A stretch of 62,817 nt of DNA, the filler included, from Deltaproteobacteria bacterium (GTDB taxonomy: Bacteria > JAUYMQ01): the NCBI GenBank assembly GCA_030698575.1. It is 6 parts of 6 records of this genome, joined end to end, with 100 filler letters (N's around TTAATTAATTAA, not from the genome) between each part and the next. Parts side by side here need not be neighbours in the genome. Positions count along the whole stretch, not along the records: positions 1 to 5,811 come from JAUYMQ010000095.1; 5 more parts are not named here. One strand, written 5' to 3'. How positions within the stretch are numbered: the first letter of the stretch is position 1; each line of letters starts with the position of its first letter. The notes beneath the pieces were generated by a model, which saw only the letters and a program-made list of their open reading frames with translations, made no database searches and was not told where the DNA came from. The translations under genes were made by a program, and so were the position numbers. Shown here piece by piece: positions 1-49,106 of the stretch.

Positions 1-82
1 GCGCCCGGCCGGGGTGCGCGCGGCGGCGAAGTCGGTTTCCGTGAACGGGGGTTCCGGGTCGAGGCCGAAGACGCTGGGGGGC

Positions 83-111
83 GGCCCCACCGGGCGGCGC
101 CCGGTGGGGCC
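83..111. terminator. GC-rich palindrome at the 3' end of the structural operon
   Basis: GGCCCCACCGGGCG-G-CGCCCGGTGGGGCC, 14-bp arms, abutting the stop codon at 111; no U-tract. Confidence 0.4.
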
Positions 112-671
112 TACAAGAAAGTTGCAAGCTCACTCGGCGTCAGCCCGACCAGGAGCCGGATATAGCCATTGAGGTTGATGGCGCCGGCCGTGTTCATGAC
201 GAGCCGGAGCTTGAGGTAAAAGTCGTTGTCCGTGATCGGGTACTTCAGCGTGGCTTCGCTAGCCTGCCACGGGACCGGCTGCTCGCCCGAGAAGGGGATG
301 CCGCCGGCAGCCGCGGGCAGGAAGCCGTCGCTCCGGACCACGCTGGGGGCGGTCCAGATTCCCCTGCCCGAGGGAATGAGCGTGCTGGCGAGATTGATGC
401 CGCCCCCGCCGCTGTCGCTCGCGACGAACAGCTGGACGGCGGTGAGCGGATTTCCGCTCGCGTGCTGAATGCCCCAGTACAGCTTGTCGATGACGGCCTG
501 ACCACTGAAATGGGGCGAGACGACGACGTGGGAGGTATTGAGGCCGAAGGCCCGGATCATGAAGGGCCAGAGCACGACCTGCGGCGGGGGGACGGCCGCG
601 GCCTGGGCGAAGGCGGCCCCGCCGAGGCGCCCCGGTCGGAGCCTGGGGTAGGTGCCGGCGACGACGGGCAC
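111..671 (-). CDS. Beta-rich hypothetical protein, candidate virion structural protein
   Basis: 186 aa; alternating hydrophobic strands (FYLKLRLV, GYIRLLVG); last gene of the capsid operon. Confidence 0.55.
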   Translation of the reverse strand: MPVVAGTYPRLRPGRLGGAAFAQAAAVPPPQVVLWPFMIRAFGLNTSHVVVSPHFSGQAVIDKLYWGIQHASGNPLTAVQLFVASDSGGGGINLASTLIPSGRGIWTAPSVVRSDGFLPAAAGGIPFSGEQPVPWQASEATLKYPITDNDFYLKLRLVMNTAGAINLNGYIRLLVGLTPSELATFL

Positions 672-675
672 GGCG

Positions 676-891
676 CTACCGGAGCCGCGAGAAGCGCGGC
701 GCGGCGCCGATGCCGCTCGCGGCGCGGCTCACTTCGCTTTGCTCGCGGGCCTCGACCGCTTCGAGCTTTTCTCTGACCGCGCGCAGCGCGAGAAGCAGGC
801 CGGGGCCGGCCGGGTCGTCCAGCCCTTCGATCTGCTCTCGCATCAGCTTCAGCTGGGCGAGCAGGGCGCTCGCGGCGCCGGGCTTGGGCAC
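676..891 (-). CDS. Small helical hypothetical protein
   Basis: 71 aa; fills the gap between its two neighbours almost exactly (GTG 1 nt after the upstream stop). Confidence 0.55.
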   Translation of the reverse strand: MPKPGAASALLAQLKLMREQIEGLDDPAGPGLLLALRAVREKLEAVEAREQSEVSRAASGIGAAPRFSRLR

Positions 892-892
892 G

Positions 893-1354
893 TTACACTT
901 CGTGACCGAGGAAGTAGACGCGCACGGTGTCCGATGCCTGCTCGAGGAAGATCATCGGATACTTGCCGGCCGGCACCTCGAGGTAGTAGTCAACGTCATA
1001 GATCACGTTCGCCGTGGCGGCGAGGAGCAGATTGCCCGCCGGCGTGAGCGAGCCGTCAGACCCGACGGCATTAGCGGGGGCCACGGCCGAGCTGAAGGCA
1101 ACGTCGTCATCTCCGTACCCCGCGGTCCAGGGGGCGATGACCGCGCTCGCGGTGTAGAGGATCCTGGTGATGACCAGGGTTTTCCCGGCGGTGACTTGGT
1201 AGCCGGCTGCGGCGTTGATCTTCCGTAGCGTGGTGTACCGGACGACGCCCGCCGCCGCGGTGACTCCACCGCGAAGGGCCAGTGGTGTCTGACGTGTCGC
1301 TCGCTCGTGAAGCCCGAATTTCCAGACTTCCGGGAAGACGCGCGACAGGAGCAT
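893..1354 (-). CDS. Beta-rich protein, candidate minor capsid/spike (single jelly-roll-like)
   Basis: 153 aa from ATG 1354 (TGATG overlap); YQVTAGKTLVITRI and EVPAGKYP strand-turn motifs. Confidence 0.6.
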   Translation of the reverse strand: MLLSRVFPEVWKFGLHERATRQTPLALRGGVTAAAGVVRYTTLRKINAAAGYQVTAGKTLVITRILYTASAVIAPWTAGYGDDDVAFSSAVAPANAVGSDGSLTPAGNLLLAATANVIYDVDYYLEVPAGKYPMIFLEQASDTVRVYFLGHEV

Positions 1355-1698
1355 CAGTAGCGCCCGATCACTTGCACGCTCGCCACCAGGCCGGCGACGA
1401 GGTTGTTGCCGAAGACGTACCGGGCATTGACATCCGGCGCCCACGTCTGACCGGCCCGGACGGTGATGGGGTCGGCGGCGACGTTGAGTTCCTTCCGGAG
1501 GTCGATCTGGGCGTCGTTGTTCTCGACGGAGATCTCCAGCCGGTTCGGCCGGCCGGTGAAGGCGAGCACGAGGGCGGCCGTCGTACCGAGCGCCACATAC
1601 CCGGCCGTCGCCTCGATCCCGCTGAAGCGGTCCGTGAGCACCCGCGGTTCACACCGCGGGCGCTCACGCTGCTGCGGATAGCCCCAGTGCTGGGGCAT
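1354..1698 (-). CDS. Small beta-rich protein, candidate penton/minor capsid protein
   Basis: 114 aa; starts 1 nt after the capsid gene stop; beta-strand pattern. Confidence 0.6.
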   Translation of the reverse strand: MPQHWGYPQQRERPRCEPRVLTDRFSGIEATAGYVALGTTAALVLAFTGRPNRLEISVENNDAQIDLRKELNVAADPITVRAGQTWAPDVNARYVFGNNLVAGLVASVQVIGRY

Positions 1699-1699
1699 G

Positions 1700-2683
1700 T
1701 TATCCCCTCGCGGTGACCCGCTCCAGCGGGTAGTACCGCACGTCCGTTGCCTCATCGCCCTGGCCGCGGATCTTCAGGTCGGCGGCCCCGGCGGTTTCCA
1801 TTTCATAGCTGCCGTCCCGCAGCGGGTCGAAGTCGAGGTAGGCGTACCCGCGGCTGCCCGTCGAGAGCGGCTGCACCACGTCGTCAGACGCCAGCTCGGC
1901 GCCGGCACCCTCGGAGGCCAGGTGCGTATGCCCGGCGTGCAGCGCGAACGCATTGCCCATCTGGTTGAGGAGCATCCCCGCCAGCGTCTCGAAGTCGCTG
2001 AGCGGGTAGTACTGCTCCACGTTGTCCTTGAGCAGCTTGACGGTGCCCCAGGAGAGCACCTCGTCGGAACTGGCGGCCAGGCCGGTGTCGAAGAGCAGGA
2101 TGCCGAGCAGCGGGTTGCCGATCGGCAGCGGGGCGTCGAACTGCCCGGCCACGCTCACGCGGGCCTGGCGCACATACTTCAAGTACTCGGTGGGCGTGGA
2201 GTCGATCAGCTCCACCGCCTCGAGGCTGAAGTTGATGTCATCGTACGCGGCCCCGTCCGCGCCCGCGTCCATCTCGAAGCGCAGATTTCCGCGCGAGGTC
2301 GCGGGGAAACACGAGTCCGGGTCATACATCCGCTTCCCGAGGCAGAGCGGGAACACGAGCGAGCGCACCCCGTCGTTGAGGTCGGTGATGTGGGACCACC
2401 CGGGGAAGGCGCGCTGATACACGGCGTTGAGCACCATGAGGTCGCGCAAGCTCCCGGAGATGATCTGCTCGCCCTTGTGGAGCACGCGCACCCCGGTGAT
2501 CTGGGTGATCGCGTCGTCGATGGCGCTGTAGGTGGCGATGGCGGCCGGGTCCACGCTCGTCAGCTGAAGCCGCAACAGCAGGACGCTGAGCGGGTTGACG
2601 GGCAGGTCGAACGGCGTGATGGAGGCCGACGCCACCAGGTCGGTGTTCGGCTGGACGATGGAGTGAAGGAACCGCTTGCCCAT
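1700..2683 (-). CDS. Double jelly-roll major capsid protein (PM2 P2/STIV-like)
   Basis: 327 aa; FDLPVNPLSVLLLRL, QITGVRVLHKGEQIISGSLRDLMVLN, PLPIGNPLLGILL and YAYLDFD...DLKIRG parallel, by eye and from memory, PM2 P2 motifs (IKLPIGQTYEVIDLRY, QIKNVRVELDG...LNDLILEN, YTIDF...DLRLKI); two internally similar halves. Confidence 0.75.
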   Translation of the reverse strand: MGKRFLHSIVQPNTDLVASASITPFDLPVNPLSVLLLRLQLTSVDPAAIATYSAIDDAITQITGVRVLHKGEQIISGSLRDLMVLNAVYQRAFPGWSHITDLNDGVRSLVFPLCLGKRMYDPDSCFPATSRGNLRFEMDAGADGAAYDDINFSLEAVELIDSTPTEYLKYVRQARVSVAGQFDAPLPIGNPLLGILLFDTGLAASSDEVLSWGTVKLLKDNVEQYYPLSDFETLAGMLLNQMGNAFALHAGHTHLASEGAGAELASDDVVQPLSTGSRGYAYLDFDPLRDGSYEMETAGAADLKIRGQGDEATDVRYYPLERVTARG

Positions 2684-2707
2684 GGTGGTCTCGTCTCCCT
2701 CGCGCGC

Positions 2708-3133
2708 TTAGCGCATCTTCAGCGCGTGCAGCGCCTGGGTGATGGGCGTGATCCGGCCGATGTTCGACGGATCGCCAGCAGGCCGCCGGGCCGGCAGGTC
2801 AGTCCGGCCGATCAGCTCCAGGTACGGGCCGATGCCGGCCTGGAACTCCGGTCCCGCCACCGCGGCGCCCTGCGCGTAGCGTGCGGGGCCTTTCTCGACC
2901 GTGTTCTTCTTCCACTTCGCGGTGCCCGCCTTGGTGACGCCCTTCTCGAAGCGGCCCGCGGCGGCGGCCGCCGTGACGGCCTGGCGGTAGCTGGGGCCGG
3001 CAGCCACCGCGGCGCCCGACCAGTCCTTGCTGGTCGTCTCGACGCCCTTCTGGTAGTCGGGCGAGGCAGCGGCCGTGCGCCGCGTCCATCGCTCGGCGGT
3101 GTCTCCGAGTGACTTGACCTTCGGGGTTGGCAT
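2708..3133 (-). CDS. Basic Ala/Lys-rich alpha-helical protein, candidate DNA-condensing/nucleocapsid protein
   Basis: 141 aa from ATG 3133 with GAGGAG RBS; immediately upstream of the capsid gene; no Walker A motif. Confidence 0.7.
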   Translation of the reverse strand: MPTPKVKSLGDTAERWTRRTAAASPDYQKGVETTSKDWSGAAVAAGPSYRQAVTAAAAAGRFEKGVTKAGTAKWKKNTVEKGPARYAQGAAVAGPEFQAGIGPYLELIGRTDLPARRPAGDPSNIGRITPITQALHALKMR

Positions 3134-3323
3134 GCTCTGACCCTCCTCGTCACAGGTTTGGCGGGCGGCCGCTCGATTCCGACTGACGGAAGTGTCGGCC
3201 AGGCTGACACTTCCTGTCAAGCCTTGGTTCGCGTGACTCAGCAGGTGGTTGATTTCATTGGACTCTTCGCTGGCACGGCTCCTGCATTTTCAATGGGGCA
3301 AGGGACCAAGGAGGCCCGAGGAG

Positions 3324-3503
3324 ATGGCGAGTTGGGGACGCGGTGGGATGGTCGGGGTGAGGAAGGCGATCTACACGCACGAGCGCACGCTGCGCCTCGC
3401 GTCGGTGATCCTGGCCGACGAGCACGGGGACAAGCACGCGCCCGGGACGCGGCGGGATCTCTGCCCGAAGTGCGCGGGGGCGCGGCGGGAGGAGGCGCGA
3501 TGA
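3324..3503 (+). CDS. Small protein with CPKC motif
   Basis: GAGGAG RBS, ATG 3324, ATGA overlap with the next gene. Confidence 0.5.
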   Translation: MASWGRGGMVGVRKAIYTHERTLRLASVILADEHGDKHAPGTRRDLCPKCAGARREEAR

Positions 3504-3799
3504 GATGCGGGGGTGTTGTGAGGGTCGGTGAGATTAGCTTCGAGCGTGCGCTACAGGAGGCGTCGAGCGTGAACACGATCAAGCGCCCGCGGACGCGCCC
3601 GCGGGTGAAGTCGGTCAACTTCCGGTCCTTCTGGTGGCTGGTTCGCCGGCAGGCCGCGCTACAGATCATCGCCGGCCCGCTGTCGCACCTGGTCTCGGAT
3701 GCCTTCGTCCGGTGGGTACTTCATCATCGCCCGGATGCGCTGCGCGATCGTGTCGCGCGGACGCTCCGGCAGAAACCAGAACGGAGAATCTACCCATGA
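3500..3799 (+). CDS. Small basic hypothetical protein
   Basis: ATGA overlaps at both ends. Confidence 0.5.
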   Translation: MRCGGVVRVGEISFERALQEASSVNTIKRPRTRPRVKSVNFRSFWWLVRRQAALQIIAGPLSHLVSDAFVRWVLHHRPDALRDRVARTLRQKPERRIYP

Positions 3800-4092
3800 G
3801 CATGACAGCATCCCTTCAAGCGAACCTCCCCGGATTCCTTCGCTCGGCGGCGCTGCCTGACATCGCCCTGGTGCTCGAAGCGGCGGCCGTCGAGCTGCGC
3901 GCGCGGGCGATGCCGGGGACGGTGGAGCTCGCGCATGCCGCTCACGTCCTGCGCCTCTACGTCTCCGCGTTCATCTCGGCCGGCGTCCCGATCTTCTCGG
4001 GTGACTGCGCGCCGGCGACGTGCATCTGTCTCGCTGGTCCCCTTGGTGCGCGCGTCCGTGGGTGGCATCGCCTCGACTGCCCGGCAAAGTAA
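3796..4092 (+). CDS. Small hypothetical protein with C-terminal Cys/His cluster
   Basis: ATGA overlap; CIC...HRLDC. Confidence 0.5.
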   Translation: MSMTASLQANLPGFLRSAALPDIALVLEAAAVELRARAMPGTVELAHAAHVLRLYVSAFISAGVPIFSGDCAPATCICLAGPLGARVRGWHRLDCPAK

Positions 4093-4519
4093 CCCACCGT
4101 CTCGACCGGGCGCCCGCGGCCCGGTCCTTCGCTGCCCGGTCTTCCGGGCGCGCGTTTCTTCGGGCTCGCGCGCTTCGCCGTCTACAAACGCGCGCCCTGG
4201 CCCGATGGAGACCCTTCTCCTCCGTCCCTCCCCTGGTCTGGTGTTTCCTCAGGGGGAGGCCGGCGGCGCCGGGGGGCGAAGCCCCCCAGGCCGCCCCAAG
4301 TCGTACCAAGCGGGCAGGGGGCGTGCCGGGCCGTTCTTGCCCGGCGCGGCCCCTGCCTTTGACGCGGTAAGATGCCCCAAACGGGGCACCCTCTACTGTT
4401 TCTTCTGTTGTAGTTCAACTGCTCTTGGGGGTATGGGGGGGCACGGATCGTGCTTGATCCCTCGTTTGGCGGGGAGGGCAAGCCGCGTGCCAACTACCCC
4501 ATTTTGACGCGACGCGCAG

Positions 4520-4550
4520 TTATCCCCAAGTTATCCACCGGATATCCACC
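4520..4550 (+). promoter_or_regulatory. Three DnaA-box-like 9-mers at 11-bp period (possible origin or ParB site)
   Basis: TTATCCCCA (4520), TTATCCACC (4531), ATATCCACC (4542) versus the consensus TTATCCACA, in a ~500-bp non-coding gap. Confidence 0.5.
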
Positions 4551-4592
4551 GAGCTTTGGGTGGGATTGTACCGATCGGTCTACCGCAGCGCG

Positions 4593-5408
4593 TTAGCCCT
4601 CGTGGGGCGAGCCGGCCGAGGCCGTCGCGCTGTGCTTCGCCACGATCAGTTGGTGGTGGCAGTCGAGGCACAGCCGAAGCCCGCGGGTATGCTCGAAGGC
4701 CGTCAGCTCGTCGCACCACTCGCAGGGGTAGGTGATGACGAAGCTCGCCCGCGCGGCCGCAAGCTCGGTGATGGTTCGCTCGTTGCTGATGATCCGCGTC
4801 CGGTCGGACAGGTAGTGCGCGCGCCATTCGTTCACGACGGCCGCGGTGGCGCCGCCCCGTTCCGCTTCGCGGATCAGGTCGCGCCGGTACGGCTCGTGGT
4901 CAATGTCGCTGAGGATCGCCACCACGGCCAGCGGCAGCCGTTTCTCCTCGACCGCGGCTTGCAGGTCGGCGGGCAGGGCGAGGAGCTCGAGCCGTTGCGA
5001 CACCCACGATGGGGTGCGCCGGAACAGCCGCGAGAGCGCCGCGAGCGAGTCGCCGCGGTCGCGGAAGCGCGCGAGCGCGGCCGCCTCTTCCATCGGGTTG
5101 AGGTCGGTGCGCTGCAAGTTTTCGCTGACGGCTGCAAGGAGCGGGTCGAAGTCTTGCGGGAACACGCGCGCGTGAATGCTCGGCCACTGGAGCAGCCGCG
5201 CCGCGAGCAGCCGGCGGTGGCCCCAGACGATTTCATACGCCCCGGATGGATCGGGGCCGCGTACGCCGACGGGCTGATGCAGCCCCTCGGCGGACATACT
5301 GTCCGCCAGCTCCCCGAGCGCGCCTTGATCCATCGTCGCGCGCAATCGGTGGCTCGGTTCCAGAATCAACGCGAGCGGCAAACTGGAGTAAACCGTTTCG
5401 GTCTGCAT
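4593..5408 (-). CDS. ParB/Spo0J-family protein with C-terminal zinc finger
   Basis: GLHQPVGV, WGHRRLLAA, SENLQRTDLNPMEEA, HTH, then CEWC...CLDC; GGAGG RBS. Confidence 0.9.
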   Translation of the reverse strand: MQTETVYSSLPLALILEPSHRLRATMDQGALGELADSMSAEGLHQPVGVRGPDPSGAYEIVWGHRRLLAARLLQWPSIHARVFPQDFDPLLAAVSENLQRTDLNPMEEAAALARFRDRGDSLAALSRLFRRTPSWVSQRLELLALPADLQAAVEEKRLPLAVVAILSDIDHEPYRRDLIREAERGGATAAVVNEWRAHYLSDRTRIISNERTITELAAARASFVITYPCEWCDELTAFEHTRGLRLCLDCHHQLIVAKHSATASAGSPHEG

Positions 5409-5580
5409 TGGGCACCTCCGGGAAGCTGACGAGGAACGCACGGCCGGGCGCCCGCGTGATGATGCAGTATTCCCGCGGCCCGGTCTGAAGCTCGCGGACC
5501 AGATCCGCGGGGATGCAGAACGCAGTCGCGCGCCCGATCTTCCAGAGCCGGTGCAGCGAGGTCGGAAGGTTCAGAGCCAT
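5233..5580 (-). CDS. AbrB/MazE-like DNA-binding protein
   Basis: N-terminal RLWKIGRATAFCIPADLVRELQ pattern; the 3' part overlaps parB. Confidence 0.5.
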   Translation of the reverse strand: MALNLPTSLHRLWKIGRATAFCIPADLVRELQTGPREYCIITRAPGRAFLVSFPEVPNADRNGLLQFAARVDSGTEPPIARDDGSRRARGAGGQYVRRGAASARRRTRPRSIRGV

Positions 5581-5637
5581 GTCTTAAGCAATGTAGCACA
5601 GGGGTTCAACAACTCGGCCCCCCCCCCGCCCGCTCAT

Positions 5638-5790
5638 CCGGTCGAGCGCATGATGCACGCGCTCGACCGGAGGGGAGCGGAGGATATCCACCGCCCCAAC
5701 CCCCCACGCGGTTTTTCTTCCACGGGAAGAAAAACAGCGGGGCGCCTGGGGCTCACGTGCCTCAACAACGTGAGCCCCAGGCGTCCCCTT
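5638..5790. repeat. Three consecutive perfect hairpins
   Basis: 12-bp stem 5638-5649/5659-5670, 11-bp stem 5711-5735, 16-bp stem 5743-5758/5768-5783. Confidence 0.8.
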
Positions 5791-5811
5791 TTCTTACAGA
5801 GTAAGAAAAGG

Positions 5812-5911
5812 NNNNNNNNNNNNNNNNNNNNNNNNNNNNNNNNNNNNNNNNNNNNTTAATTAATTAANNNNNNNNNNNNNNNNNNNNNNNNNNNNNNNNN
5901 NNNNNNNNNNN
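5812..5911. other. Artificial contig linker (also 8625-8724, 13166-13265, 17894-17993, 48720-48819)
   Basis: N44-TTAATTAATTAA-N44; stops in all six frames. Confidence 0.99.
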
Positions 5912-8624: not shown

Positions 8625-8724
8625 NNNNNNNNNNNNNNNNNNNNNNNNNNNNNNNNNNNNNNNNNNNNTTAATTAATTAANNNNNNNNNNNNNNNNNNNN
8701 NNNNNNNNNNNNNNNNNNNNNNNN

Positions 8725-13160: not shown

Positions 13161-13265
13161 TCGGANNNNNNNNNNNNNNNNNNNNNNNNNNNNNNNNNNN
13201 NNNNNNNNNTTAATTAATTAANNNNNNNNNNNNNNNNNNNNNNNNNNNNNNNNNNNNNNNNNNNN

Positions 13266-13742: not shown

Positions 13743-16019
13743 ATGATCACCCCGCCTGTCATCGTCGCCTTTCTGGAGGCGCGCTCGCAGCACGCGGTCA
13801 CGCTCAAGACCATTCGTTCCCATTTCAATCTCCGAACCGACGAGCGGCGCTTTCTGAAGCGCATGCTCGCCGAGATGGTGGATGAGGGGCTCATCGTGAA
13901 AGTCGCAGGAAATCGCTACAAGACCCCCGGCTCGCGCGAGATGGTGACCGGGCGCGTCCAGCGCTTCGACGAGGGTTTCGCCTTCGTGATTCCCGAGGAG
14001 GCAGGGAGCCCTGATCTTTTCCTCTCGCCGCGAGCCGCCCAGGGCCTGGTCCAGGGCGACCGGGTGCTCGCGCGCATCAACCGGCGGGGCTCGCGCCCGA
14101 GCGGCTCGGTGGTGCGCGTTATAGAGCGCGCCCATCCCCGGGTGGCGGGCAAGATCGAGCGATACAAGAAGTTCTCCATCGTCCATCCCTACGGCGCGCG
14201 GGGGATCGGGCCGGTCAGCGTGGCCCAGGGGCACGAGATGGACGCCCCCGACGGGACCGTGGTCGTGGCCGAGGTGACCAGCTTCCCGACCGAGCAGGCC
14301 GGCGCCTTCGGCCGGGTGGCCGAGATCCTGGGCGATGCGTCCGATCCGAACGTGGAGTTCCAGGTAGTCGCTCTGAGCTTCGGGCTCCCCGTGCGCTACG
14401 CGCCGGACGCGGAGAAGGAGGCCGCCGATTGTCCGGCGAGTATTTCGGCCCGCGATCGGGAGGGGCGTCGGGATCTGAGGGACCAGGTTACGGTGACCAT
14501 CGACGGTGAGACGGCGCGCGATTTCGATGACGCCGTCGCGGTGGAGGAGCTTTCAGGCGGCGCGACCCGACTGCGCGTCTCGATCGCCGACGTGGCGCAT
14601 TACGTGCGCGAGGGGAGCGCTATCGACCGGGAGGCCTATGCGCGGGGGACCAGCGTTTATTTTCCTGATCGCGCGATCCACATGCTTCCCCCCGTGCTCT
14701 CGGCGGGCATCTGCAGCCTGAAGGAAGGGGAGGAACGCCTCACGCTCACGGCCGAGATGGAATTTGACGCCTCCGGGCGCCGGACGGGTTACCGGGTCTT
14801 CGAGAGCGTCATCCGGAGCCATGCCCGGCTCACCTACACGCAAGTAGCCGCGGCGCTGACGGGGGAAGGTGATCCGGGGAAACGCACGATGGATCTCATC
14901 GATCACCTCCGCCGCGTGGAAACCCTCGCCCGCCGCCTCGTCGCCGGCCGGATGGAGAAGGGAAGCATCGACTTCGACCTGCCGGAAGCCGAGCTCATCA
15001 TCGACGTCCAGGGGAAGACAGAAGACGTCGTGAAGCGCCAGCGCAACATCGCTCACCGGATAGTCGAGGAGTTCATGCTCCAGGCGAACATGGCCGTGGC
15101 GGAGTTCCTCGAGGGGCGTGGAGCGCCGGTCCTTTACCGCGTCCATGAGCCCCCGGAAGCGCAGGACATGAAGGAGTTCTCAGAGCTGGCGAAAGCCTTC
15201 GGCTTCACGCTGGATCTCAAGCGGGGAGTCCGGCCGAAGGATCTGGCTTCGATTCTCAGCCGCGTGAAGGCGCGCCCCGAGGAGCACCTGATCAACCAGG
15301 TGCTGCTCCGCTCGATGCGACAGGCGCGCTACTCCCCGAAGAATGCGGGGCATTTTGGTCTGGCTTTCGAGCACTACTGTCATTTCACCTCGCCCATACG
15401 CCGTTACCCCGACCTGATCAACCACCGGATTCTCAAGCGCGTCTTCCGCTCGGGCGACGTGGCCCGCGACAGCGCGGCGAAGCTCACGCAACAGCTCCTC
15501 GACCAGGGCGATCACACCTCCCGGCGGGAGCGGCTGGCGATGAACGCCGAGCGCGATATCGTGGCGCTGAAGAAAGCGCAGTTCATGGTCGACAAGATCG
15601 GGCAGGAGTATGAAGGATTCATCTCCGGGGTAACCAAGTTCGGCTTCTTCGTCGAGCTGGCGAAGTACTTCCTGGAGGGACTCGTCCCGCTGCGGACGCT
15701 CTACGACGACGACTACGTGTTCCACCCCCGGCTCTTCCAGCTGGCCGGCCGCGTGACCAAGCGCCGCTTTAGCCTCGGCGAGCGCGTGACTGTGCGGGTG
15801 GACGCCGTTGACGTGGATCGTCGCACGATCGACTTCGCGCTGCTCGGAAAGTCGGACGAGGGCGGATTGGCGGCGCCTCGCTGGCTCGAAGGCGCGGCGC
15901 CGAAGGGCCCGCGGCAACAGCAACCCGGCAAAGCGCGGCCGAAGGAGTCGGGGGGACAGCCGCCCGGCAAAGCGCGGCCGAAGGGCGGGCGGCGGAAGCG
16001 GCGCCGCGGGGGGCGCTAG
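13743..16019 (+). CDS. rnr: Ribonuclease R
   Basis: TIDGETARDFDDA, HFTSPIRRYPD, S1 domain, basic tail. Confidence 0.96.
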   Translation: MITPPVIVAFLEARSQHAVTLKTIRSHFNLRTDERRFLKRMLAEMVDEGLIVKVAGNRYKTPGSREMVTGRVQRFDEGFAFVIPEEAGSPDLFLSPRAAQGLVQGDRVLARINRRGSRPSGSVVRVIERAHPRVAGKIERYKKFSIVHPYGARGIGPVSVAQGHEMDAPDGTVVVAEVTSFPTEQAGAFGRVAEILGDASDPNVEFQVVALSFGLPVRYAPDAEKEAADCPASISARDREGRRDLRDQVTVTIDGETARDFDDAVAVEELSGGATRLRVSIADVAHYVREGSAIDREAYARGTSVYFPDRAIHMLPPVLSAGICSLKEGEERLTLTAEMEFDASGRRTGYRVFESVIRSHARLTYTQVAAALTGEGDPGKRTMDLIDHLRRVETLARRLVAGRMEKGSIDFDLPEAELIIDVQGKTEDVVKRQRNIAHRIVEEFMLQANMAVAEFLEGRGAPVLYRVHEPPEAQDMKEFSELAKAFGFTLDLKRGVRPKDLASILSRVKARPEEHLINQVLLRSMRQARYSPKNAGHFGLAFEHYCHFTSPIRRYPDLINHRILKRVFRSGDVARDSAAKLTQQLLDQGDHTSRRERLAMNAERDIVALKKAQFMVDKIGQEYEGFISGVTKFGFFVELAKYFLEGLVPLRTLYDDDYVFHPRLFQLAGRVTKRRFSLGERVTVRVDAVDVDRRTIDFALLGKSDEGGLAAPRWLEGAAPKGPRQQQPGKARPKESGGQPPGKARPKGGRRKRRRGGR

Positions 16020-17893: not shown

Positions 17894-17993
17894 NNNNNNN
17901 NNNNNNNNNNNNNNNNNNNNNNNNNNNNNNNNNNNNNTTAATTAATTAANNNNNNNNNNNNNNNNNNNNNNNNNNNNNNNNNNNNNNNNNNNN

Positions 17994-48719: not shown

Positions 48720-49106
48720 NNNNNNNNNNNNNNNNNNNNNNNNNNNNNNNNNNNNNNNNNNNNTTAATTAATTAANNNNNNNNNNNNNNNNNNNNNNNNN
48801 NNNNNNNNNNNNNNNNNNNGAATTCCAATTTGTGGCTGATAATCCGGGATTCGGCCGGCTTGCTCCGGAGGCCGTTCTGCCCGAGACTTCCCCGCCATCA
48901 GGGCCCTGTGTACAGTCCTGTGTGACACCGCGCTGGTCACGATCGCGCGGCTCCTGAAACCTGGCCGCTCGAAGCCCATTGCCGGGGGCTGTACGAGCTC
49001 CCCATGGCGGCGTGATTAGCAATTCGCCCTGTACAGCTAAACTCTCAACCCCAACTGCAGGATCGACATGAAATCCTGATCATAGTTGGGGAGCAGGTCA
49101 GGCGGC

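Follow-up and report, generated by a model that had tools for sequence, protein, structure and literature searches.

The Odin group of viruses, in the part of the paper of Yutin et al. (2018, Virol J, PMC5894146) that deals with it, associates a double jelly-roll (DJR) capsid protein with genomes of 7-11 kb that carry repeats, and is stated to lack a packaging ATPase. Its genes comprise ParB, AbrB/MazE, PD-(D/E)XK and, sporadically, an M15 peptidase (Yutin et al., 2018, PMC5894146, same part). They also comprise a small gene, 'cons1', located upstream of the capsid gene, and its product was proposed to be essential for DNA packaging. According to the same excerpt, these viruses may assemble their capsid around the genome, an account repeated in the corresponding passage of San Martin and van Raaij (2018, PMC6260650), and in the portion of Woo et al. 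(2021, PMC8328091) that bears on the matter the ATPase was again not found. One member, Huginn virus, is assigned an archaeal host in the relevant lines of Tamarit et al. (2022, PMC9246712). Chaacviruses and the Huginnvirus group share an uncharacterised protein, the gene of which precedes that of the capsid, as reported in the excerpt of Laso-Perez et al. (2023, PMC9894754) that describes it. In the later literature on the Odin group, Huginn virus and Chaacviridae we found no functional study. How DNA enters the ATPase-less DJR viruses has been a question since 2018, and a protein of the type described here is the only published candidate.

The locus that we consider belongs to a window of 62,817 nucleotides (the whole stretch of DNA that was analysed), positions 1..5811 of which (JAUYMQ010000095.1) are a viral contig fragment with a capsid operon that runs off the contig end. 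The gene of interest, P1 (P0001), occupies 2708..3133 on the minus strand, i.e. 141 codons plus the stop, with its ATG at 3133-3131. A Shine-Dalgarno motif, GGAGGG, is read in the sequence 7 nt before this ATG (3141..3146, minus strand), so that the 141-aa frame with a strong ribosome site proposed in the initial annotation is borne out. A longer P1 of 170 aa, started at a TTG, was considered and is unlikely. The first 49 homologues are all 138-148 aa long, with the same Met-Pro start, and it is because they share this length range and start position that the 141-aa form is the right one. The stop codon of P1 is separated by 24 nt from the start of the capsid gene (1700..2683, minus strand). 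Beyond it, three downstream ORFs on the minus strand were recognised as conserved by ORF clustering: 1354..1755 (cluster c7, the true start of which is probably later than listed), 893..1444 (cluster c25, 183 aa) and 111..671 (cluster c9, 186 aa).

On the other side of P1, the minus strand codes for a ParB-like protein (4593..5441, with ParB_N and HTH_ParB) that is kept in 46 of the 84 loci analysed, and for a small ORF of cluster c10 (5233..5580), one relative of which displays a weak AbrB/MazE match, at 23.4 bits, below the Pfam cut-off of 24.7. The ParB-like gene and P1 are about 1.46 kb apart (3134-4592), a region that might harbour regulatory or replication signals. Conserved ORFs are absent from it, except that a part of the minus strand (4182-4493) is similar to an ORF in L001, one of the related loci. 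A sigma-70 promoter scan returned 0 sites. It is plausible that P1 is the first gene of the operon.

What makes this a capsid operon is the product of 1700..2683. Its AlphaFold model has a pLDDT of 85 and a pTM of 0.85, and Foldseek retrieves with it STIV (2bbd, E 2e-12), then PRD1 P3 and PM2 P2. The model matches the capsid proteins of STIV, PRD1, PM2 and PBCV-1 with a probability of 1.0 and TM values of 0.6-0.7, and a look-up in the ESM Atlas agrees with the DJR assignment. As predicted by this model, the gene after P1 codes for a true DJR major capsid protein, which upholds the view that P1 heads a capsid module. To follow this neighbourhood, related loci were fetched, 3 on contigs of genomes and 80 on contigs of metagenomes, with 84 loci analysed in all. 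A capsid-sized conserved gene comes directly after the P1 homologue in every one of the 71 loci that have at least 300 bp downstream; the other 13 were left out of this count, with too little sequence on that side. HMM or hhalign comparisons place the gene in the DJR family in 54 of the 71. In the other 17 it belongs to clusters c16, c96 and c184 (271, 265 and 304 aa, respectively), which gave probabilities below 1% when compared to the DJR family with hhalign, and empty results in Pfam and PDB sequence searches. The expectation that homologues of P1 always precede a DJR capsid gene thus stands if a capsid-sized gene is meant, and stands for the DJR family proper in the 54 loci just mentioned.

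P1 itself is basic, with a pI of 10.27 and a net charge of +11. Its composition (A 26, G 15, K 11, R 11, K+R being 22 vs 11 for D+E) is that of the Ala/Lys/Arg-rich basic protein that had been anticipated. Nine aromatic residues punctuate the sequence, W16, Y27, W38, Y49, F62, W74, Y86, F97 and Y104, at intervals of 11, 11, 11, 13, 12, 12, 11 and 7 residues. Having seven of eight gaps within 11-13 is a regularity reached in 1 of 200,000 random placements. The initial annotation had perceived this periodicity, which holds, and had listed eight aromatics, missing Y104. An alignment of 26 diverse sequences shows all nine columns to be 85-100% aromatic, with conserved K/R or D/E on their flanks. 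The self-similarity of the profile peaks at shifts of 11, 22 and 35 (z 3.3-4.0). We therefore take residues 14-106 (2816..3094, minus strand) to consist of approximately eight repeats of 11-12 residues. Each repeat opens with a conserved aromatic, W alternating with Y/F, and the Y/F units continue with xxGV; along the 11-residue period, positions 1, 4/5 and 8 are apolar, with K/R flanking them. The apolar face is mostly made of Ala/Gly/Thr, and the mean hydrophobic moment, 0.245 vs 0.18 in shuffles (12/1000 shuffles), speaks for a modest amphipathicity. The repeats are succeeded by a conserved non-repeat tail, delineated by the alignment and the model (residues 111-141; 2711..2803, minus strand), where L113, P114, R116, P118, G120, N124 and R127 are conserved ahead of a helix. 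In the family, as sampled by these 26 sequences, R85, N124 and R127 are invariant.

The AlphaFold2 model of P1 is all helix, as the initial annotation had supposed, with a pLDDT of 84.5 and a pTM of only 0.39. Short helices up to residue 58 lead to a helix spanning residues 61-110, then to a coil and a final helix, and the tail (111-141) is the best-modelled part, at a pLDDT of 88-91. Seen through this model, P1 is an extended helical rod of no known fold. Foldseek against PDB returned nothing at E <= 0.001. A wide search with VIA collected long single helices or coiled coils only, with a best Z of 4.9 at an rmsd of about 30 Å. BFVD gave nothing at E <= 0.001, its best match (E 0.063) being an uncharacterised archaeal-virus protein. 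Sequence and profile searches against Pfam, PHROGs, NCBIfam and PDB gave no match. Hence neither these four nor the three structural searches (Foldseek PDB, VIA wide, BFVD) yielded a DNA-binding fold or family for P1. A likeness to SIRV2-fold capsid proteins and to VP1 of SPV1 had been suggested, and these are absent from the matches of the three structural searches, for a query model of such low pTM. With tblastn, P1 and the capsid protein had no match in 50,697 phage records, and a scan of IMG/VR produced 47 pattern matches, among them no relative of P1. A complex prediction that combined P1 with two copies of the capsid protein (two alignments, without controls) scored 0.00, which is uninformative either way.

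The family is large. An exhaustive HMMER search gave, with E <= 0.001 as the threshold, 786 clusters at the 50% identity level, and 384 when the limit was set at E <= 1e-10, with members that are nearly all about 140 aa long. They come from soil, sediment and groundwater, and the source of one homologue, P0040, is named as marine sediment metagenome. Basicity characterises the whole family: 167 homologues of 130-150 aa have a median pI of 10.27, with 99% of them above 9, and the median net charge ranges from +10 to +13 across all types of capsid gene. In 630 of 742 pairs drawn from the main DJR cluster, identity is higher for P1 than for the capsid protein. Between this cluster and that of the 271-aa proteins, similarity is detected for P1 in 420 of 462 pairs, at about 45% identity (40-47% across lineages), and for the capsid-sized proteins in 0 of 462. 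A conservation exceeding that of the capsid protein fits a constraint imposed by an unchanging ligand such as DNA. Some members depart from the common architecture. In P0074, P0081 and P0078 the P1 domain runs directly into a transmembrane helix, and the ORF of P0078 continues in frame into a capsid-like protein that is 38% identical, over 266 aa, to the gene product that follows P1 in L042. Two loci (L059:983-1842 and L060:338-1280) have tandem P1 paralogues ahead of a 358-aa DJR-family gene. The paralogues are basic and have the repeat, and in L059 the two are 40% identical. A 123-nt inverted terminal repeat was also noticed in L059.

The full-length records of relatives do not exceed 11.0 kb, with the exception of one of 13.9 kb. 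Five have direct terminal repeats of 117-127 nt, typical of circular assemblies. Three of them, L030, L015 and L023, measure 9.5-10.2 kb, with direct terminal repeats of 123-127 nt, and two measure 5.9 kb; as circles these are of about 9.4-10 kb and about 5.8 kb. In the 10-kb class, as ordered by ORF clustering of the 84 loci, genes succeed one another as AbrB-like, ParB, a gap, P1, the capsid gene and three small proteins. Further genes specify a variable protein of 330-470 aa, a protein of 146 aa, one of 550-690 aa and, in some genomes, an M15 peptidase. The 550-690-aa protein (cluster c13, e.g. L003:7494-9332, in 19 loci) has no family match, and 56% of its members possess a hydrophobic segment. 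Near P1 the 10-kb class has no conserved small membrane protein, a search upstream of P1 in 14 loci having found none, and none of the complete genomes has a recognisable replication protein. The class of about 5.8 kb, with L069 (5951 bp) and L053 (5921 bp), and also L040, L044, L048, L050, L052 and L056, consists of circular assemblies that have terminal direct repeats of 117-125 nt, and in which P1 is followed by the 271-aa protein, without ParB. No similarity between this 271-aa protein and DJR capsid proteins could be detected. If it were a DJR capsid protein all the same, these circles would fall below the published range of 7-11 kb. P1 has the same length (about 142 aa) and the same charge in both classes.

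Three of the related contigs, L001, L002 and L003, of 4.4-10.5 kb, were found in bins labelled Burkholderiales, Gemmatimonas and Egibacteraceae. That related contigs sit in three differently labelled bins suggests an element belonging to no single host genome, and their binning does not reveal the host. As for the packaging ATPase, no conserved cluster with a Walker A motif exists across the 84 loci, five of which are circular assemblies. Among ORFs of 120 aa or more, the motif appears in just seven scattered ones, and scans of the conserved proteins of the relatives with Pfam, PHROG and NCBIfam displayed no ATPase. An absence of ATPases is what the initial annotation had named as support, and for this genome itself it amounts to a partial test, its own contig being a 5.8-kb fragment.

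Judging from gene context, we consider it highly probable that P1 is the small pre-capsid protein, 'cons1', of the Odin group, a set of small prokaryotic varidnaviruses devoid of a packaging ATPase. Both have a small orphan protein before a DJR capsid gene, no ATPase, ParB, an M15 peptidase and genomes within 7-11 kb with terminal repeats. The AbrB/MazE gene of the Odin group is paralleled here by the below-cut-off match only, and its PD-(D/E)XK nuclease by a weak Card1-like hint (E 0.065) in the relatives. There are also differences. In that part of the paper, the published alignment is stated to have no conserved polar residues (Yutin et al., 2018, PMC5894146), unlike the three invariant ones in our alignment; the samples named there are marine sediments, whereas the present contig occurs in groundwater runs; and the 5.9-kb class lies outside the range of 7-11 kb given in that part. 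The comparison with chaacviruses and the Huginnvirus group is one of position: in the excerpts concerned, they too have a protein placed before the DJR capsid gene, in genomes of 10-11 kb (PMC9894754; PMC9246712), and this upstream protein is common to lineages with very divergent capsid proteins (PMC9894754), a distribution that P1 also has here. In contrast to what we have here, these are archaeal viruses, and chaacviruses are described in the same excerpt as linear, with a protein-primed polymerase (PMC9894754).

A role in condensing the genome, which the initial annotation had put forward, is reasonable and already in print as a hypothesis, so that it is not new: the part of Yutin et al. 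(2018, PMC5894146) quoted above had proposed a role in packaging. That part of the description of the Odin group makes no mention of an 11-residue aromatic repeat, of a basic charge or of a circular class of 5.8 kb (PMC5894146). What the present analysis adds is the 11-residue repeat, the uniform basic charge, a conservation above that of the capsid protein and the fusions to membrane helices, to which come the tandem paralogues and the sameness of P1 in length and charge between the 5.8-kb and 10-kb classes. Since the finding repeats a published hypothesis, its value resides in a sharper description rather than in a discovery. The P1 family is large and easy to express, and its charge, its repeat, its separate tail and its high conservation are as many handles for experiments.

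How could such a protein work? In the reading that we prefer, to which we would give a probability of about 0.4, P1 would be made together with the capsid protein and become an abundant internal protein of the virion. Its N-terminal 100 residues would make up an elongated helical rod, whose 11-residue repeats set K/R on the flanks of an aromatic stripe; this rod would bind the genome and partly neutralise its charge. Through the conserved C-terminal tail the rod would be anchored to the inside of the shell or to an underlying membrane, and the capsid would close on a genome already coated with protein, with no motor to fill it. Presence in the virion, binding, docking and co-assembly are all inferred. 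This motor-free co-assembly is favoured by the lack of an ATPase, by a charge that is kept across the family, by the strict linkage to the capsid gene and by the pattern of conservation. A PM2-sized shell has 600 copies of the capsid subunit, and as a rough estimate one P1 per subunit would bring approximately 6,600 positive charges, to be set against the 20,000 negative ones of a 10-kb duplex. One may go further and imagine a new kind of nucleocapsid protein, a rod of about 16 nm that follows the DNA, its K/R facing the phosphates and its aromatics set into the grooves or against the bases. The 22-residue super-repeat (about 33 Å) would then match one turn of B-DNA, and P1 would be the conserved core of motor-free encapsidation in a very large bacterial and archaeal DJR assemblage that takes in even the circles of 5.8 kb. 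We see this extension as improbable.

Several points count against the binding of the genome. The searches described above yielded no DNA-binding fold or family, and the amphipathicity is modest. The position just before the capsid gene is classic for a helical scaffolding protein, and a basic charge combined with a stripe of aromatics would be just as suitable for an anionic membrane. P1 might accordingly be a scaffold, a cement or a tape-measure that lines the capsid, its rod running along the inner lattice with no essential contact with DNA, and we hold this to be possible, if somewhat doubtful. Being directly upstream of the capsid gene, and apparently co-transcribed with it, P1 would be well placed for this. 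A predicted rod with about 105 helical residues has as its nearest, weak, structural neighbours lattice-lining and coiled-coil proteins; the tandem paralogues of L059 and L060 are what is expected of a stoichiometric structural part; and in one relative P1 and the capsid-like protein that comes after it share a single reading frame. It would be odd, however, that the partner of nothing but the capsid should remain 40-47% identical where capsid-sized proteins have diverged beyond detection, and a ruler should not keep a constant length (about 142 aa) between genomes of 5.8 kb and of 10 kb. To our knowledge, moreover, a strong and conserved positive charge is unusual among scaffolding proteins, and this again goes against such a role.

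A peripheral protein of an internal viral membrane, with an interfacial helix of 11-residue repeats lying on anionic lipid, its aromatics in the interface and its K/R on the phosphates, where it would organise or curve the vesicle under the DJR shell, is in our opinion unlikely. An 11-residue pattern with an apolar stripe is that of helices lying at lipid surfaces, such as those of apolipoproteins, and P1 has this period, with apolar positions 1, 4/5 and 8 and K/R on their flanks. The transmembrane helix placed right after the P1 domain in P0074, P0081 and P0078 favours a membrane-proximal location of P1, the c13 protein with its frequent hydrophobic segment points the same way, and the cultured prokaryotic DJR viruses that we know of have an internal membrane. 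On the other hand, the hydrophobic moment is modest for an apolar face built mostly of Ala/Gly/Thr, conserved small membrane proteins are missing near P1 in the 10-kb class, and the internal membrane is itself putative in a group of the Odin type. Finally, that no family assignment limits the role of P1 leaves room for a non-structural passenger of the capsid gene (a regulator, a host-takeover factor or an assembly chaperone). This we regard as very unlikely: strict adjacency, a strong ribosome site and a conservation higher than the capsid protein's speak for a core, abundant function, and P1 is kept even in the minimal circular genomes of 5.8 kb.

Known virion proteins illustrate these possibilities without enrolling P1 among them. 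Phage scaffolding proteins share with P1 its predicted helical nature and the location of its gene next to that of the capsid. Protein J of phiX174 and protein VII of adenovirus are small basic internal DNA-binding proteins of icosahedral viruses that are motor-less or contain a core. P1, as a small basic protein with a proposed DNA-binding part and a proposed docking tail, in genomes devoid of a translocating ATPase, may resemble them in its way of working. This is an analogy and not a membership, for there is no relation in sequence or fold, and P1, with a rod built of repeats, is much longer than J. With the SIRV2-type proteins and SPV1 VP1, P1 has in common that it is helical, basic and proposed to coat DNA, while its model shows one long rod in place of a bundle of helices with an arm. 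Among DJR viruses, P30 of PRD1 and the minor proteins of PBCV-1 are minor capsid or tape-measure proteins of extended shape. P1, likewise small and extended, could run along the inner shell as they do; it differs from them in its constant length across genome classes, its strong basicity and its conservation, higher than that of the capsid protein. Compared to helices of the apolipoprotein or synuclein type, its periodicity is clear, for an amphipathic moment that is modestly above that of shuffles (12/1000).

We must add a comment about the origin of the sequence. Three DNA sequencing runs contain the contig or part of it, two from groundwater in one study and one from sediment in another, and no RNA run is listed among the sequencing runs that contain it. 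The contigs of the three DNA runs include strain variants and fragmented unitigs, and in them no bridging or circular joint for the contig was found. At least six contigs make up the window, linked in a chain by blocks of 44 N + 12 nt + 44 N (5812-5911, 8625-8724, 13166-13265, 17894-17993 and 48720-48819). Because unrelated contigs have been joined in this way, adjacency to the viral contig is uninformative about integration. The later contigs carry ordinary bacterial genes, such as a long RNase R-like ORF at 13743-16019.
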